Source: Fimicolochytrium jonesii (lineage: Eukaryota). Taken from it: DNA of 64,000 nt. Under the pieces are notes generated by a model. That model made no database searches, was not told where the DNA came from, and saw only the letters and a program-made list of their open reading frames with translations. Location of the stretch: contig NW_026515670.1 of the NCBI RefSeq assembly GCF_025526975.1, forward strand, positions 1,426,001-1,490,000, written 5' to 3'. Position 1 is the stretch's first letter. Each line of letters starts with the position of its first letter. Shown piece by piece: positions 50,822-64,000 of the stretch. The position numbers and the translations under genes are program-made.

Positions 50822-53224
50822 ATGTACAACCGCCCACCCCTGAAACGCCCCGCCCAACCCCTCTCAAAACCAAAACCCTCCAAATCCATATGGGACGACG
50901 ACGACGACGACGACGACGATGATGCCCTCGACGCCCTCGCCCGCCCTGCCAAGCGGCGGATGCTCGACTTGGACAATGACCTGGACGAGGATGGGGATGG
51001 GGTCGATACACATGCACATAGCTCAATAGGGAAGGCAGCGACGCCCACGCCCGTTGCACAGAAGGATAATGAGGAGGAGGAAGACGAATTGGACGCATTC
51101 ATGGCCAACATCAACGCCGAGATCAAACAACAAGACACCGCTCCAAACACCACCAAGCCATCCGCCCCACAGAGGCAGGAGTTCGAATCCCTCGAAGAAG
51201 AAGACCACATAGAATCCTACATAGCACACATGGCCCGCCGCGGCATCGAGATCGGCAAAGGGACCGGCGGGCAGGCGCGGCTCGACAATGCCGATGAGGT
51301 CGATTCCGACGAGGAGGTGTACGCGACCGCGCGCGCCGTCGATGCCGCGTTGGGTGGGGACCCCGACGACGACGGGATGGGTCCGAGAAGGGGGGAAATA
51401 GAGCCGTTAGCACCCACGGATCACAGCGTGATCACTTATGAGGAGATCAATAAGGATTTCTACGAGGAGCATGAGGATATCAAGCGTTTGAGCGACGCGG
51501 ATGTAGAGCGGGTTCGGAGGGAGTTGGATATGCATGTCCGCGGGGTCGGGGTGGCCAAACCATGCATCTCCTTTGCGCATTTCGGGTTCGATGATGCGCT
51601 GGTCAACGTGGTACGGAAGTTGGGATACACGGAACCAACGGGGATCCAACGCCAGGCCGTCCCCGTCGCCCTCTCGGGTCGCGACATGATCGGGATCGCG
51701 AAAACTGGGAGCGGGAAGACCGCCGCCTTCGTCTGGCCGATGCTGGTGCATATCATGGACCAACGCGAACTGGAAAAGGGCGAGGGCCCGATCGGGTTGA
51801 TCCTTGCCCCCACACGGGAACTGGCGCATCAGATATACATAGAGACGAAAAAATACGCAAAAGCGTATGGACTGAACTGCGCATGCGTCTACGGCGGCGC
51901 CTCCAAATCCGACCAATTCAAAGACCTGCGTTCCCCCGTCGAGATCCTCGTCGCGACGCCGGGGAGGTTACTCGACCTGATCAAAATGAAGGCGACCAAC
52001 CTGCGTCGCGTGTCCTACCTCGTCCTCGACGAAGCCGACCGGATGTTCGACCTCGGCTTCGAGCCGCAGGTCCGCTCCCTCTGCACGGCCGTTCGCCCCG
52101 ATCGCCAAACCCTGCTCTTCTCCGCGACGATGCGGAAACGCGTCGAACGCCTCGCGAGGGATGTGCTCACCGACCCGGTGCGGATCTCCATCGGCGCCCA
52201 GAACGCCGCGAACGCAGATATCACCCAACACATCCACGTCCTCCCCGACGACACCTACAAATGGGCCTGGCTCACGTCCCACCTCCCTGCATTCACGGCC
52301 GAGGGAAGCGTGCTGGTCTTCATTGGCCGGAAGGCGGGCGTGGACGCGCTCACGGACTCGTTGCAGGGCGCCCGCGTGGAGTGTGCCAAGCTGCACGGGG
52401 ACATGATGCAGGCGGATCGGGACCGGGTCGTGCGGGAGTTCAAGGCGGGGAAATTCAAACTCCTCGTATGCACCGATGTCGCGGCTAGAGGACTCGACAT
52501 CAAGAGTGTGCGCACCGTTATCAACTACGATGGTATGTCCCCCCCCCCTGCTTCACAACCCATTGGTCTTTGTGGGCTTGTACGATTGACACGGGGGGTT
52601 TCTTTTTGTTTGGGGATTGGTTTTTTTTTTTTAGCACCGAAGGATATAGAAACCCACATCCACCGCATCGGGCGCACGGGCCGCGCGGGCACAAAGGGCG
52701 ACGCGCACACGCTCATCACGCAGTCTGAAGACAGATTCGCGGCCGAGCTTGTGCGCAACCTTGAAGAATCGGGCGTCGCTGTTCAGAGCGATGTGATGGG
52801 GGTGGCGATGCGGAACGGGCGGTTCAGGAAGGGGAGGGAGGGGTTTGCGCGCGGTGGGAGGGGGAGGGGGAGAGGTGGGGGGCGAGGCAGGGGGAGGGGA
52901 CGGGGGGTGGGGTTCGGGCAGGGAGGTGGATCGGGGGGTGGGGCGAATAGTGTGCCGTTGGGTGGGGGTGGGTTTGCGAGGCATCCGCCGCCGCCATCGT
53001 TGGGGGCGCCGGGAGGGGGTTATTCGAGGCAGCCGCCGCCGCCGACGTCGTATGGTGCTGGGACGGGGTTTATGGCGTTCCAGCGGGCGCAGAGTGCGCA
53101 GGGGTCTTCTACTTCGTTTCTTGGTGGTACGGCACAACAACAACAACCACCTCCTCAGCGGCCCCCGCAACAGCAGCCACCGCAACAACCGGAACAGCAG
53201 AGGAGGCGACGATGGGATACTTGA
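50822..53224 (+). CDS. DDX42: DEAD-box RNA helicase DDX42
   Basis: DSDEEVYATA; IEPLAPTDHS; PCISFAHFGFD; AKTGSGKTAAF; DEADRMFDLGFEPQVRS; HRIGRTGRAG; RGG tail; intron at about 52532-52634. Confidence 0.93.
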   Translation: MYNRPPLKRPAQPLSKPKPSKSIWDDDDDDDDDDALDALARPAKRRMLDLDNDLDEDGDGVDTHAHSSIGKAATPTPVAQKDNEEEEDELDAFMANINAEIKQQDTAPNTTKPSAPQRQEFESLEEEDHIESYIAHMARRGIEIGKGTGGQARLDNADEVDSDEEVYATARAVDAALGGDPDDDGMGPRRGEIEPLAPTDHSVITYEEINKDFYEEHEDIKRLSDADVERVRRELDMHVRGVGVAKPCISFAHFGFDDALVNVVRKLGYTEPTGIQRQAVPVALSGRDMIGIAKTGSGKTAAFVWPMLVHIMDQRELEKGEGPIGLILAPTRELAHQIYIETKKYAKAYGLNCACVYGGASKSDQFKDLRSPVEILVATPGRLLDLIKMKATNLRRVSYLVLDEADRMFDLGFEPQVRSLCTAVRPDRQTLLFSATMRKRVERLARDVLTDPVRISIGAQNAANADITQHIHVLPDDTYKWAWLTSHLPAFTAEGSVLVFIGRKAGVDALTDSLQGARVECAKLHGDMMQADRDRVVREFKAGKFKLLVCTDVAARGLDIKSVRTVINYDGMSPPPASQPIGLCGLVRLTRGVSFCLGIGFFFLAPKDIETHIHRIGRTGRAGTKGDAHTLITQSEDRFAAELVRNLEESGVAVQSDVMGVAMRNGRFRKGREGFARGGRGRGRGGGRGRGRGRGVGFGQGGGSGGGANSVPLGGGGFARHPPPPSLGAPGGGYSRQPPPPTSYGAGTGFMAFQRAQSAQGSSTSFLGGTAQQQQPPPQRPPQQQPPQQPEQQRRRRWDT

Positions 53225-56001: not shown

Positions 56002-56029
56002 TCTTCACCACTCAAGCACAGCAGCAACC

Positions 56030-57454
56030 ATGCCAATCAAAAATATCTTCTCCGCAGTACCCCTGCTCCTCCTGCTAGCCTCCTCAGCAACCCAAGTCCT
56101 CTCGCACCCCGTGCTCTCCGACTCGTCCATCGCGGCGCTGGGCGGCATCCACGATCTCGAGCACAGGCATGTGAGTCTCAGGGCGCGGTACGCTGAGGCG
56201 GCGTTTGATGATGAAAACGGTAACGACGACGACGGTGATGATGCGGAGGACGGCGACGACAACACCCCCGCGGCATTTGCACCTGCGACTGCCGCATTTG
56301 CGTCGTTGGCCGATGTGAGTGTGGTTGATGCGAGCAATGCTGCGCCGGCTGAAGGGGGTGCTGTCGTGGCTGTCAGTGTCGGGGCCGCGAGTGCGACTGA
56401 ATCTGCGACGGCGACCGCCGCAGCTGCAACCTCGACCGACACCGCATCCGCATCCGCATCCGCATCCGCCACCGTCTCCGCCGCGTCAGGCTCCGCGACC
56501 GTATTCCCCGGCACAGCACCAACGCTCTCCACAGCCGGCGCCCCCGCGCAAGGCGACCTCTTCGTGCTCAACTACGCCCTCACCCTCGAATTCCTCGAAG
56601 CCTCGTTCTACAAGCAGGCCCTGGACAAATTCGACGCAAACGCCTTCAAAGCCGCCGGCTTCGACCCAGCCATCCGCGACCAGATGCTCGTCATCAAGGG
56701 CCACGAGGACACCCACGTCACGGCCTTGACGGGGGTGATCGAAACCGCTTTCGGCAAAGGAACCGCGGTGGGAGCATGTGAATACAACTTCAACTTTGAC
56801 ACGGTCGCCGGGTTCGTCGCCACCGCCGCCGCCCTCGAACGTACGGGTGTGAGCGCATACACGGGAGCCATCGCATTCATCCAATCCAACGCCGTCAAGA
56901 CCGCCGGCGCCGCAATCGCGACCGTCGAAGGCCGCCACGCCGCTCTGTTGAACGCCGTCAACGCCCAAAAACAGGGCGACGGATCCGCAAAGAACATCAA
57001 CCCCATCCCCGCCTCCTTCGACACCCCGCTAGGATTCGCACCCATCCTGTCCATCGCAGCCCCCTTCATCAAATCCTGCCCCTTCGCACTCCCCGTAGCC
57101 CCCTTCCCAGCGTTATCCCTCGCCAACCCCAACGGCGCAATCGGCGATAAGGTCTCCCTCCTCTTCACCGCGACCCTCACCCAAGCCCAACTGACCACGC
57201 CCGGGGCACTCCAATGCGACATCCTCTTTGGCCTCGCGCAGAAACGCACGCCGGTGACCATCTCGAAAGACGCCAAGGGGAACAACCTGGCCGACTGCGT
57301 GATCCCGCCTGAAGCCGCTGGGTTTGAGGAACTGATGGTGTTTATCGTGAATCAGGATCAGGATGTGACGATTGAGAATGACAAGCATGTTGTGGCGGGA
57401 CCCACGACGTTCCAGACGTTGGAGAAGACGCTTGTTAAGGTTTCCGCTCAGTGA
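56030..57454 (+). CDS. Secreted ferritin-like (Ferritin_2 / Rds1-like, desiccation-related) protein
   Basis: Signal peptide, acidic and Ala/Ser/Thr-rich linker, DLFVLNYALTLEFLEASFY, HEDTHV, CEYNF, LERTGVSAYTGA, IATVEGRHAA, FDTPL; intronless. Confidence 0.9.
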   Translation: MPIKNIFSAVPLLLLLASSATQVLSHPVLSDSSIAALGGIHDLEHRHVSLRARYAEAAFDDENGNDDDGDDAEDGDDNTPAAFAPATAAFASLADVSVVDASNAAPAEGGAVVAVSVGAASATESATATAAAATSTDTASASASASATVSAASGSATVFPGTAPTLSTAGAPAQGDLFVLNYALTLEFLEASFYKQALDKFDANAFKAAGFDPAIRDQMLVIKGHEDTHVTALTGVIETAFGKGTAVGACEYNFNFDTVAGFVATAAALERTGVSAYTGAIAFIQSNAVKTAGAAIATVEGRHAALLNAVNAQKQGDGSAKNINPIPASFDTPLGFAPILSIAAPFIKSCPFALPVAPFPALSLANPNGAIGDKVSLLFTATLTQAQLTTPGALQCDILFGLAQKRTPVTISKDAKGNNLADCVIPPEAAGFEELMVFIVNQDQDVTIENDKHVVAGPTTFQTLEKTLVKVSAQ

Positions 57455-58071: not shown

Positions 58072-59221
58072 ATGTCACACCACCTTCTTTCCTCACGCCT
58101 CGGCCTCTTCTGCACCCATCACACCCCCTCACCCGCGCTCCTCTCCCTCTCCGTCGCCCTGCCGCGCCGATACCTCACCTCATCCCCCCGCGTCCGCACC
58201 GGCAATTTCGCCGACCACCCGCGCGTAACAGACCCGATCCCGTCGAGCGATGCGTCCACGACGACGCTGCCGCTGACGACGAGGAGCGGGCCGCATCCGA
58301 AGGTTAATGTGGATCCTAATACTACCGCGGTGAGTTGCACGAATTTGGAAATGTGGATGGGTGTGTTGTTTCGTTGCGATGGGAGCCGGAGCGATATCGG
58401 GCGCGAGCATCGTAGACGCCGTGTGCTTGATGTTGCTTCATGATGGTTGATATCATAGTATACTGATCTTTTCTTCAACTCAGTGGCGAAAAGAAGAACC
58501 AGCAACAGAAACCAAAAAATCCTACGTCCTCGCCCGCCCTATCTACTCGCCCTCCGAACTCAACGTCGCCGTAACCCACCGCGACATCCAATCCCTCTCC
58601 GACCGCGTCTCCTACGCCCTCGTCCGCGTCATGCGCTTCGGGTTCGACACAGCCACGCGCTATTCCGATCAAGTCGGCGCCATGACCGAGCACCAATGGC
58701 TCAACCGCCTCGTCTTCCTGGAGACCGTCGCGGGGGTGCCGGGGTTCGTCGGCGGGATCCTGCGCCATCTACGATCCCTTCGGTTACTGAAACGCGACAA
58801 CGGGTGGATCCATACCTTGCTAGACGAAGCGCAGAACGAACGCATGCACCTGCTCTCCTTCCTCAAAGTCAAACAACCCAACCTCCCCTTCCGCATGATG
58901 GTCCTCCTCGCCCAAGGCACCTTCTTCAACCTCTTCTTCCTCTCCTACATCCTCTCCCCGCGCATGTGCCACCGCTTCGTCGGGTATCTCGAGGAATCCG
59001 CCGTACACACATACACCCACTGTCTGAAGGATATCGAGAGTGGACAGCTCAGGCATTGGGCCACCACCCCGGCACCCGAGATCGCGAGGGAGTATTGGCA
59101 GCTGGGCGACGGCGCGACGTTGAGGGATATGGTGCTGGCAGTGAGGGCGGACGAGGCAGAGCATCGAGATGTTAATCATACGTTGGCTAGCCTCAAGCCG
59201 GATGATAAGAACCCGTTCTGA
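58072..59221 (+). CDS. AOX: Alternative oxidase
   Basis: Presequence; intron 58330-58483; FLETVAGVPG, NERMHL, VGYLEESAV, RADEAEHRDVNH di-iron motifs; TATAAAG at about 57973. Confidence 0.97.
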
Positions 59222-59492: not shown

Positions 59493-59600
59493 CGAAGTTC
59501 AGGTCAGGTGTGAGTGCGGGACGGTCCCGAACGCATCGCTCCTATTCATCATAGTGGGCCAATTTCGGTCTATGCGGGGGCGTCGAGGGCACCCAAAAAC
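59493..59600 (-). ncRNA. Candidate Fanzor omegaRNA (about 88-nt scaffold plus flank-derived guide)
   Basis: Downstream of and co-oriented with the Fanzor gene; GTTTTTGGG...CCCGCACT with nested complementary segments (GGTgCCCtcGA/TCGGGACC, CGCAT/ATGCG, CTAT/ATAG). Boundaries are inferred. Confidence 0.45.
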
Positions 59601-60053
59601 GTTGCTTCATGTCGTCTCGGGCCCAGTCCCTCCCCTCCGTTCGGGTTTCAATGCACACAGACGATTAAGTGTCCAATGTGCCTCGGATCTTCCGCACATA
59701 CAAATTGTGGGAGAAGCTTTTTGAGCGACTTTTTCCAAATGACAGACACACGAATATGGGACAAATCGTTCACTCTCATATCTTTTGCTTCCAAAGGATC
59801 TGAATACTCTACATGGTTTCGTAAACGGGCGTAAAACAACCAGCGCAATGCGCCATGAACAATGCCAACACTCCGACGTGTGGGTCCGCCTGATCCGCTT
59901 CCACCCCCAAGACCTTCGCCGCATACGTACCCCAGCTCACCCTTTTGTATTTCTCTTACAAGTTGCCATCATCGGCGATGCCTCCGGCAGAGGTACAATG
60001 ATGTGGATGGCAGATAACCACCACGGAAAATGGGATGGGGTGAAAACTCTAGA

Positions 60054-61731
60054 CTACCGGTTACGGGAGAATGCGTCTGGTCTGTGGCCATTGCCAAGCA
60101 CCACCGAGCGCACAATCGAGAGGAAATTCTTGGTGCTTAGGACGTCCCGATTGTGCACTTTCATCCGTAATGATTGTCTTCCAGGAATCTCAAATGGCGT
60201 CCAGTCTTGGTTGATACATTCGGGGTTGGGGCAACCCACCAATCCATGGACGAACTCCATTCTTCCCTTTCTAGCTTGCCACGGCCGAGGTGATAGCCAT
60301 CGTCGGATGTTTTTCCTCACACGACCGTGGCAGTGGGGGCACACGGACGACGTTCGATACTCATCTAGCAAGTAGCATGGAATGCTGTTTCTTGCAAAGA
60401 GTGTGCGGAATCTAATTTCCATGATGAGTTAGCATATTATAGTACATAAAAAACAATGATGGTCACTCACCCCTTGGTCTTCGATGACTCCTGAAAGCGC
60501 ATCGTTTTCCCAGCGTCGCTCCAATCACCCAAGATGACCGAAAAATGCTTTCCATACCGGCGTCGCATGTTCGTAATGAGCTTGCTCTCAGACTTTTGCC
60601 GCAGTGAGAACGCCTTGAATCTGCGAGCGACGTGAATCTCATCCCCGTAAAACTCATCCAGGGCGGGATCTGGGATATGGATGGATGTCAGCCCATGTAT
60701 TACCCAATTTAAAGATCAAAATTGAAGTAGAACATCATACCCGCATGTACGCGATCCACAATGAACGCTGAGAACGCCTCGATGTTCCTACTCTTGTGCG
60801 ATGGAATATGTGATTCCATCTCGGCAATGCCGGCATTGATCTTTCGCTCTCTCAAGTCTCTTTGAAAGTACCGCGACTTTGTCTCGACCGCCCGCTGATT
60901 GGATGTGTATCTGGTATGGTATGGTGCATTGTGAGAACGCGGCAACAGATGGCGGAGACGGTGAGTGGGGGGGGGATGGCGGGGACGGGGACGAGGGAAC
61001 CACCCCATCCAAGTAAACCGCCGCAAACACCTGCGCACCATCCTCCGCGAAGTCGGGGATTGGGAGGGGGGGGGGGGGGGGGGGGCGGGGGCGAGGGGGG
61101 TGCCAGAGATAGCAGGGACAGCGGGGACAGGGGGGACAGGTGGGCAGTAGTAATCCACTGAAACTTACCGAAATGGGCGCTCCTTTTCGATTCCTCGACA
61201 GACCAGGAGATCACGCTTGCCTGGATCAATGCAGACGATGTTTGGAGCCTCCCTTAATTCATCAATGTGGTGCTCAACATACAGCTGCTTGACCCCTTCC
61301 CGCATTTGGGCCTTGCTGCGCTTCCGCGCCTGATGCCCATACTTGAGCCCAGGCTTCTTGAAGTGGATGGCAACAGAATACCCGTTGGTGCTAATTGACC
61401 CATCGAACTTGAGACCAAGCTTCTTTCAATGTTTGAAGACCTTGTCCTACAATCCGTCATTCAGCGATGTAATCTGACTGAAATAAGAGCGGAAGGATAC
61501 AGACTTACATTCACATTGAGAAACTGCCCCCACAGCCCCTGCTTGCGTTCATCAGTGAGTTTCCCCATGCGACGTCGGCCAACATCCAGGATATGAGTGC
61601 CTAGGATCAGCGTGTCGATCCGAACAGATGACTGGATTTGAGATTTGCGCAGCGGGATAGCGGAAAACAGCCACATTCCATGGCGCTCATAGAGGCGTGA
61701 GAGCTCACAGTAGGCACCTGTGATGAGGCAG
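60054..61731 (-). pseudogene. Fanzor1 (eukaryotic TnpB-like RNA-guided endonuclease), spliced, 5'-interrupted by an LTR element, one nonsense codon
   Basis: Five exons (61730-61509, 61446-61169, 60910-60741, 60669-60471, 60411-60054) join in frame. Motifs: IPLR..IDT, IDPGKRDLL (RuvC-I), FRYTSNQR, VILGDWS, LLDEYRTS-CPHC, VHGLVGCPNPEC, HNRDVLSTKNF, RPDAFSR. In-frame TGA at 61426-61428. Confidence 0.9.
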
Positions 61732-62262
61732 TGTTAAGAATGGGCGGAGCCAACGGAAATAGAGGCGACTTGTGGTGCAGGTTGTTGACAGGTAATGGTA
61801 TTCAGACCGAAACAAGAACTAGAACAAGACTAGGAAGAACTGGTGTTGATCTGCTGGGGGATCAGGAAGTGGGGAGCTCAGGGGAGGCGGCTATTTATGC
61901 TTTTCTGGGAAGGCTGGGGAAGCGTGGGGAAGCAGAAGGGTACGGAATAAGAGGGAAGCCAAGAGAAGCGCCAAGGGTGGGGGAAGCATCGAAACAGAAG
62001 ACTGGGGATGGGGTGGCTACGCTGAGGCTGTGGGCGGGTACGTGGGGAAGTATGGAGAAGGGTTTGTAAGCGCCGAGTGTTGGGAAATGTGGCTACGTGC
62101 GGCTGCGTGGAAAAATGAAGGCAGTGGCAGGTGTGGGGTAGCGCGGCTGCGTGCGGCTGCGAGGTTTGGCAGATGTCAGGTTTTGACAGGGAATTGACAT
62201 TGACTGACTGTTGGGATGCTGTCATGAGGTAAGCGCATGGTATGGACGCGTCGTCCATAACA
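61732..62262 (-). repeat. 3' LTR (531 bp)
   Basis: Termini TGTTA...TAACA, directly following the polypurine tract GGCTAAAGGAGGGGGTGA (62280-62263, minus strand). Confidence 0.9.
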
Positions 62263-62274
62263 TCACCCCCTCCT

Positions 62275-64000
62275 TTAGCCACGGCGTCCGGATGTTGTTT
62301 TGATGTTGGCAGGCTTTGGTCGGGGTTTGTCGTGGTACTTTTGGTGGAACTGGGCAACAAGCTCTTGACAGCGGGCAAGGTGTTCCACTGGCTCCCATGT
62401 GTTCTCCGAGCTTGGCCAACCCTGCCACTTGATGAGGTACTGAAGGTGCGTGCGTCGAATACGGGAGTCAAGAATGTCTTCCACAATCTATTCCTCCTGT
62501 CCTTCGACTTCTTCTGGTGGGGTGGGTTCTGGCTCAGTTCGCTCCGGAATGGTGAAACGTGGTTCAAGAAGGGAGACATGGAAGACGTTGTGAATTTTGT
62601 AGGATGGGGGAAGCTTGAGGCGATATGTGATCGAGTTGATCTTCTCCGTGATTGTGAAGGGGCCAATCTTACGGTGATCAAGTTTCTGGGAAGGTCGGAG
62701 AGTCTTGAGATTCCGTTGTAAGAGCCAGACACTGTCCCCGGGTTTCATGTCTGGGCCAGGTGCCCTCTTAGCATCGGCAAAGCGCTTCATGCGTCCTTGG
62801 GCCTCCTTGAGCTCAGTGGCAAGCTGTTCATGGATTTCCTTGAGATGGTTGGCACGAGCTTCGGCTGCAGGATTAAGGGATTCGGTTGTGGTGGCGGAAG
62901 CCAGACTGAATCGAGGATGGAACCCATAGTTGGCGTAGAAGGGGGTTGTCTGGGTGGCGGAGTGGATGGTGTTATTGTAAGAGAACTCAGCAGAAGACAA
63001 GAGTTCCTTCCAGTTATCTTGTTGATAGTTGCAAAAGCAGCGAAGGTATTGCTCAAGAATCTGATTGGTCCGCTCGGTTTGTCCATCGCTCTGGGGATGG
63101 AACGCCGATGAGAGGTTGACCTTGGTTCCCAGGAGAGCGAAGAGACGTTTCCAGAAGTGGGGGTTGAACTGTGGGCCACGGTCAGATACAATATCGTTGG
63201 GGAGTCCATGGAGCCGGATGACATGGTGCCAGATCAGATCTGCAGTTGACTCAGCGGTGGCAGTTTTCCTGCACGGTACAAAGTGCGCCATCTTGGTGAA
63301 CCGGCAGATGACAACGAGCACAGAATCAACCCCATCACTGGCGGGTAGATCCGTGATGAAGTCCATGGAAATTGACCCCCAGGGGCGGTCAGGGACCTGC
63401 AGGGGTTGGAGGAGACCGTAGGGCTTGTGTCTGCTGGTCTTGGCTTGAGCACATACGTCGCAGGACCTGATGTAGGACTTGACAAAACGCCATTGGCTAG
63501 GCCACCAGTAGTTGCGTGAGATGAGCTCCAGGGTGTTTGACATGCCGTAGTGTCCTGCCAAACGCGTGTCATGCATGTCCCGGCAGATCTCAGCACGGAG
63601 CTTGTTGGTGGGGACGTAGACAAGGTTGTCGTACAGCAGAACCCCATTTTCCTCGGAGAATCGCTTTATCCGTTCTTGGTCTTCTTGAGATTGCTGGGAG
63701 CCCTAAGCTGTCGCCGGATGGTTTGCGCAAACACATCGGATGCCAGGGCAGCTTTGATTTGGTCAAGGAGCGAGGAGTCCAGTGGGGTCAGATAAGTGGC
63801 GGCCAGGCGGAGATGGTCAGGGGTGAGGATCGTGGTTTCCTGGGAGTGGAATGCTTCTTCCCCCTCCCTTAGCTCGTATTCAGAGCGACGAGAGAGGGCG
63901 TCAGCTTGGTGTTGCTGGGTACCAGGGCGGTATGTGATGACAAAGTCGAAATCAGCAAAGAAGATTGACCAGCGGGATTGGCGGCGGTTGAGGGTACGGG
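62275..64000 (-). pseudogene. Retrotransposon pol (RNase H end - integrase - chromodomain), disrupted
   Basis: The upstream frame ends at TAA (about 63666) while homology continues in another frame (FSEENGVLLY...). An in-frame TAG in GQEE*IVEDILD separates the chromodomain. Confidence 0.9.

Follow-up and report, generated by a model that had tools for sequence, protein, structure and literature searches.

An intron-split Fanzor1 relic in Fimicolochytrium jonesii, its likely omegaRNA gene and its multi-copy family, a sister of SPu-1

SpuFz1 of Spizellomyces punctatus, the nuclease of SPu-1 (PDB 8GKH and 9CEU-9CEZ; PMC10432273, PMC3627910; "family4" in PMC10530073, Data S1), belongs to Fanzor1, which is defined by a Gly or Pro at the canonical RuvC-II position and an alternative Glu downstream (PMC10530073). 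SPu-1-type elements have terminal inverted repeats of about 30 nt and a TA target site. The omegaRNA of SpuFz1 is described as a 75-nt scaffold followed by a 15-nt guide (PMC10432273, section 10 and supplement 5), and Ty3/Gypsy insertions in SpuFz1 genes have been reported (PMC10432273). In bacteria, repair of the break made by TnpB restores the element (PMC10690162), whereas for Fanzors restoration by repair is a proposal (PMC10432273). Introns are familiar in this group. Fanzor1 genes of five and ten exons were described in 2013 (PMC3627910), and intron-containing Fanzors with up to about 9.6 introns per kb have been mined with splice-aware tools (PMC10530073). According to the same study, CrFNuc-1 of Chlamydomonas reinhardtii was the sole intron-containing Fanzor tested, and it did not cut.

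Here we describe a Fanzor1 copy of F. jonesii that lies near one edge of a 64-kb stretch of DNA, called the window below. An initial annotation had read four GT-AG introns of 62, 258, 71 and 59 nt on the minus strand, and each of them was confirmed in position and at both splice ends (Table 1). When the exons were joined from 61730, the annotated frame of 408 codons followed by a TAG (60056-60054) was reproduced, with one internal TGA at 61428-61426. However, judged by the sibling gene models, its first four codons (C-L-I-T) are intronic: the sequence ...DAMPYL is directly joined to GAYC in 15 of 19 sibling models and the remaining four break there. Thus, the first exon of the window copy starts at 61717 and the coding remnant comprises 404 codons. 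Three models (P0011, P0013 and P0098) read through the end of this fifth, upstream intron in other frames. Because the siblings either join PYL to GAYC or read through the intron end, the long terminal repeat (LTR) that truncates the copy is located within the fifth intron and not in an exon. The annotation's view of a dead copy with a TGA and an LTR insertion was supported. The 5' half of the gene (about 350 codons) is beyond the retrotransposon and outside the window, and two further upstream introns are suggested by several sibling models, in which breaks follow KYYL and NLKVN. Intron 2, whose length and sequence vary between copies, has a GC content of 66% with poly-C and short tandem units, whereas the three short introns are AT-rich (31-42% GC).

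Table 1. Positions of the Fanzor1 copy, its right end and the retrotransposon insert in the window.
Feature	Position	Strand	Remarks
Predicted guide, 15 nt (host flank past the right end)	59942..59956	-	Inferred from the 75+15 nt layout of SpuFz1
Predicted omegaRNA scaffold, 75 nt	59957..60031	-	Contains stem-loop 1 (60024-60003); terminal TA at the element's likely right end
Last exon	60054..60411	-	Rearranged RuvC-II Glu (E of DEYRTS, 60362-60360); C4 zinc finger/TNB (CPHC 60341-60330, CPNPEC 60233-60216); RuvC-III Asp (D of NRD, 60146-60144); TAG
Intron 4	60412..60470	-	59 nt, GTGAGT..TAG
Exon with GDWS and lid	60471..60669	-	GDWS 60529-60518; Gly replaces the canonical RuvC-II Glu
Intron 3	60670..60740	-	71 nt, GTATGA..CAG
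Exon, bridge helix/REC2 region	60741..60910	-	
Intron 2	60911..61168	-	258 nt, GTAAGT..CAG; GC-rich with poly-C; in-frame stop if unspliced
Exon with premature TGA	61169..61446	-	WED strands; RuvC-I Asp (D of IDPG, 61227-61225)
Intron 1	61447..61508	-	62 nt, phase 0, GTAAGT..TAG
First retained exon	61509..61717	-	End of REC, start of WED
Fifth (upstream) Fanzor intron, 3' remnant	61718..61731	-	Ends CAG at 61720-61718; siblings join PYL to GAYC or read through
3' LTR of a Ty3/Gypsy chromovirus-type retrotransposon, 531 nt	61732..62262	-	TGTTA...TAACA; in Fanzor intron, same orientation as gene
Polypurine tract before LTR	62276-62263	-	Recognized in the sequence
3' part of retrotransposon pol	62275..64000	-	Pfam PF17921, PF00665, PF24626, PF00385; continues past window edge

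The spliced product was identical to SpuFz1 (P0057) in 195 of 405 alignment columns (48%, E=7e-120). The alignment was gap-free at junctions 2-4 and at junction 1 itself, and this match indicates that the exon structure did not arise by chance. Further, when exon 5 alone was compared with PDB sequences using phmmer (E<=10), only two matches were obtained and both were Fanzor1 proteins, SpuFz1 (8gkh, E=6.5e-28) and PpFz1 of Parasitella parasitica (9cf0, E=7.5e-11). The catalytic residues D383, E541 and D606 of SpuFz1 map onto the D/E/D residues of the window copy, GDWS occupies the canonical RuvC-II position with the alternative Glu downstream in DEYRTS, and the C4 zinc finger (CPHC...CPNPEC) is present before RuvC-III, so that the motifs reported as intact were all found in place. 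The homology extends to the fold, with the arrangement REC-WED-RuvC-TNB in the model of a sibling protein (P0022), and the identification as Fanzor1 thus stood after splicing, translation and comparison of both sequence and structure. Pfam returned nothing above its cut-off for any exon of the window copy, for P0022 or for SpuFz1 itself (a weak PF07282 match, E=0.0099, was below the cut-off); since SpuFz1 is also without a match, Pfam is uninformative for Fanzor here.

In a quick IQ-TREE phylogeny of 35 rows, each of them a SpuFz1-like match, with no Fanzor2 or TnpB outgroup, the window copy was placed among Fanzor1. It grouped with its siblings (support 100), and this family was sister to a Gaertneriomyces protein (support 100); the node joining the family to the SpuFz1 clade was poorly resolved (support 82). 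That this part of the window carries a Fanzor1 pseudogene, the 3' half of a gene from a spliced sister family of SpuFz1, is well supported. The window copy makes no enzyme.

Homologue searches found 71 gene models of the family on more than 30 contigs of F. jonesii, and the gene is thus multi-copy within one species, as expected of a Fanzor1 in a eukaryotic transposon; the 64-kb window itself holds no second Fanzor copy. Three unrelated short proteins that had been listed in the cluster (P0029, P0033 and P0040) were dropped from all counts. P0075 and P0109 come from a contig equal in length to that of P0001; P0075, which overlaps the coding region of the window copy yet differs from it, was assigned to another copy, and no link between P0109 and the window copy emerged. 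The window copy was 79-93% identical to the sibling models compared, apart from one degraded model (64%). Its introns recur among the siblings, as the annotation had expected. In the models that reach the respective junction (P0001, described below, included), intron 1 was shared by 18 of 24, intron 2 by 24 of 26, intron 3 by 40 of 43 and intron 4 by 40 of 41. These models are predictions that may derive from one shared training template, and the recurring junctions are therefore not independent proof of splicing. Every intron was read through in at least one sibling, for example in P0103 for intron 1, and the read-throughs of intron 2 in P0043 and P0054 differ from each other. The codon of the window TGA is Arg in all 20 sibling models covering it.

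The window locus had been described as hidden from the ORF track. This is true of raw ORFs, but NCBI already holds the locus as a spliced "uncharacterized protein" model of 346 aa (P0001), which is identical to the window product on exon 5 (100%) and 97.7% identical overall. P0001 does not rescue the window copy. Its later acceptor avoids the TGA at the cost of eight residues, including those that correspond to K312, R315 and R317, which bind the omegaRNA; in addition, the model has no N-terminal half. Nor did the implied novelty of spliced Fanzors overlooked by mining hold, because spliced Fanzors have been published and the locus and its siblings are NCBI models, spliced and unnamed. The family itself is apparently uncatalogued. 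The species name had no match in those tables of Saito 2023 that were searched, and three family motifs had no match in Data S1 of Jiang 2023, in which the SpuFz1 control had four (the first 400 characters of each cell were covered). Further, a full-text literature search found no paper linking Fanzor with F. jonesii.

The annotation had suggested that intact siblings may exist. Among the 55 scored models, two retain D/E/D and span 95% or more of the core, namely P0022 (761 aa), which itself served as the reference for core coverage, and P0023 (693 aa). Since such natural full-length models exist, there is no need to rebuild a consensus. P0022 matched 8gkh at E=4.6e-149 and aligned with SpuFz1 over residues 129-759 with short gaps only. 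In its AlphaFold model (mean pLDDT 74.9; the model is of this sibling, not of the window copy), residues 1-130 were disordered. The top structural matches were SpuFz1, PpFz1 and GtFz1, with Cas12 and TnpB far behind, and the TM-score for SpuFz1, taken by target, was 0.83-0.86. Across the family, the DE motif was present in 43 of 43 models. NRD occurs in 33 of the 55 scored models and accounts for 33 of 35 true positions.

Other positions have changed. At the position of the Mg-binding Asn385 of SpuFz1, 28 of 32 models have DPG; the fragment P0096 keeps an Asn there (DLNK, versus DPGK in the 28). The position of the TAM-groove Arg96 is Gly in 22 of 24 models, although the loop is shortened and the alignment uncertain at this point, and the position of N133 is Asn in none of 22 models and Ala or Gly in all of them. 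When P0022 was compared with the contact list of SpuFz1, 3 of 4 metal ligands, 4 of 6 TAM contacts, 9 of 13 duplex contacts and 13 of 26 RNA contacts were identical. Either an altered TAM or a weaker enzyme is possible from these substitutions. The sibling model P0085 joins a family fragment to a tyrosine-recombinase-like region at its N-terminus (PF00589, E=5.6e-4, below the cut-off); a DIRS/Crypton-type element may have inserted into a Fanzor copy, or the fusion may point to an association with a transposase.

The F. jonesii family is a sister family of SPu-1 and not SPu-1 itself. It is 45-48% identical to SpuFz1, with a common fold, and both have the D/E/D triad with the rearranged Glu, GDWS and the C4 zinc finger. 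Further, the family and SPu-1 are both multi-copy, with a 75-nt right-end scaffold ending in TA (a predicted one in the F. jonesii family) and Ty3/Gypsy insertions in some copies, and no transposase is seen in either (in the window, none for the Fanzor element was found). In contrast to SpuFz1, which is encoded by a single ORF in an element characterized as intronless, the family has at least five introns. Its Pro-rich N-terminal extension of about 130 aa is not in SpuFz1, the DPN of SpuFz1 is DPG, the TAM-contact positions R96 and N133 are changed and the right-end sequence differs. Two of the 55 models are intact, versus nine intact among 17 full-length copies of SPu-1.

The nearest non-self relative is HDU85_005947 of Gaertneriomyces sp. 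JEL0708 (P0053; 56-58% identity), the sister branch in the tree, which unlike the F. jonesii family keeps DPN and has no N-terminal extension. PpFz1 (PDB 9CF0-9CF3; PMC11423790) has the common Fanzor1 fold and, like the family, DPG at RuvC-I; however, the identity is about 20% in structural alignment, and the large RuvC insertion of PpFz1 is absent from the family. The Fanzor1 genes of C. reinhardtii (CRe-1/2/3, CrFNuc-1; PMC3627910, PMC10530073) are likewise described as multi-exon and multi-copy with the guide RNA at the 3' end, but they are Helitron2-borne and cleavage was not detected, whereas the F. jonesii family resembles the TA-ending Spu-1-type element. Several metagenome relatives of 620-670 aa sit on contigs of just 2.1-2.6 kb and, because the contigs are this short, are probably intronless too. 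Intron gain in the F. jonesii lineage would be a simpler reading than loss; we infer it only, because the node to the SpuFz1 clade is poorly resolved.

Two parts of the locus are new here and absent from the initial annotation, namely the element's right end, at about 59957, and an omegaRNA-like scaffold of 75 nt. Two contigs of one soil-metagenome run (X1) diverge from the window sequence at 59957, which likely marks the right end. It finishes in TA. The left end, beyond the retrotransposon, is outside the window, and so are the TIR and the TAM. The segment 60031-59957 is likely an omegaRNA gene and is apparently intact in the window copy. Compared by eye with the SpuFz1 omegaRNA, it has the same length (75 nt), the 5' UUUUCC lead, a 7-bp stem 1 and a GUUAUC loop that allows a C6-G pair. 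Its positions 35-38 pair with 72-75, with U-A and G-U as in SpuFz1 and with U-G and A-U replacing G-C and U-A, and positions 39/71 and 40/70 are unpaired. The 7-bp stem-loop 1 with the GUUAUC loop and the short stem 2 core are also found in PpFz1. Lead and loop together are found at a single place in the window.

The segment with stem-loop 1 (60031-60002), which was picked after inspection, folds at -10.6 kcal/mol (z=-3.7; none of 200 shuffles was as good). As a whole, the 75 nt do not fold with unusual stability (z=-0.6; 53 of 200 shuffles did as well), and the SpuFz1-type register of stem 2 has -10.2 kcal/mol versus -20.0 kcal/mol for the minimum-energy fold. A sliding 80-nt fold scan 3' of the stop codon gave z=-2.1 at best, Rfam had no match at E<=1 across 59500-62400, and the metagenome contigs had none to the 20-nt stem-loop-1 motif. 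We also weighed a pseudoknot joining the loop to the 3' tail but set it aside, since none is mentioned in the sections of PMC11423790 consulted. The predicted guide has no further match with two or fewer mismatches in the window, which thus contains no guide target.

The insert is of the Ty3/Gypsy chromovirus type, as indicated by an integrase with a chromodomain, a polypurine tract and a TG...CA LTR; the pol domains are the integrase zinc finger, rve, SH3 and the chromodomain. No solo LTR is present in the window. Because the LTR (62262-61732) is oriented as the Fanzor gene, its promoter could drive read-through of 61717-59942, including the omegaRNA. The retrotransposon is itself broken: its frame changes near 63700, and a TAG (62490-62488) interrupts the frame between integrase and chromodomain.

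Our preferred reading, to which we assign a probability of roughly 75%, is that a stop codon and a Ty3/Gypsy element broke this copy of a multi-copy, intron-split Fanzor1, of which the window holds the dead 3' half, that a likely omegaRNA gene follows at the probable right end of the transposon, and that the siblings would act as SpuFz1 does. By analogy with SpuFz1, full-length siblings of the P0022/P0023 type, whose products have about 760 aa and a basic, NLS-like, disordered extension at the N-terminus, would be spliced by the host spliceosome and would load an RNA of roughly 90 nt, consisting of the 75-nt right-end scaffold and about 15 nt of host flank. Double-stranded DNA would be cut at the empty or excised site, where a TAM ending in TA precedes that flank, and repair from the filled allele would restore the element, as with bacterial TnpB. 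The window copy could still donate a guide RNA in trans, as has been suggested for ghost Spu-1 loci, and mobility would require a transposase supplied in trans.

More tentatively, the family may be active, a sister of SpuFz1 that acquired five to seven spliceosomal introns together with the long N-terminal extension while remaining mobile. Since R96 and N133 are replaced, the TAM that it reads could be different or looser, and its dead copies could donate guides. If so, the family would provide an intron-rich Fanzor that actually cuts, and SpuFz1 and its sister would form a direct test of intron gain in the gene of a mobile RNA-guided nuclease. It is possible, although we doubt it, that the whole family is instead extinct, with every copy a decaying relic and the full-length models merely the least damaged. 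The copies differ by about 9-13% at the protein level, two models of 55 are full-length and one of these, P0023, has Gln at the position of SpuFz1 R407; R96, N133 and N385 are lost, and the environmental copies differ at nine non-synonymous versus six synonymous codons. However, many of these environmental differences match residues found in siblings, P0022 keeps D/E/D within an alignment interrupted by short gaps only, and the residue changes are family-wide and therefore predate the expansion to dozens of copies.

The change of N385 to Gly, the loss of the TAM-groove Arg, the divergent TNB residues and the disordered extension of 130 residues would also suit an RNA-guided DNA binder, a family that binds guide and target and cuts weakly or not at all. 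We consider this improbable, because the catalytic triad is kept, PpFz1 has DPG yet cleaves DNA (PMC11423790) and multi-copy decay is what a transposon would show, not a host gene. That the GT-AG segments are insertions into an intronless SpuFz1-like gene and not spliced introns is very improbable. SpuFz1 is indeed a single ORF, but all five segments have canonical splice ends, three of them with branch motifs of the CTGAC/CTAAC/CTGAA type near the acceptor. Further, the segments are common to the siblings and the environmental copies, and taking them out restores the alignment with SpuFz1. The environmental copies are carried by contigs of the soil metagenome (X1) and include the ends of introns 1, 3 and 4; a scan of the metagenome contigs with P0022 gave no match.

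It is through its full-length siblings and its predicted scaffold that the locus has value, and not through the dead window copy. SpuFz1 is the best characterized Fanzor editor, and a natural sister of 45% identity with changed TAM contacts and a predicted scaffold is a candidate for a new target range. The family is also a source of substitutions for engineering, and the existence of intronless and spliced close relatives bears on the entry of introns into transposon genes.

Beyond the element are neighbouring host genes: the plus strand encodes an alternative oxidase (PF01786) at 58451-59221 and a secreted ferritin-like protein (PF13668) at 56027-57454, and a DEAD-box helicase-like ORF is located at about 50825-53224. 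About 735 nt separate the element's right end from the stop codon of the oxidase gene, and the two are convergent.
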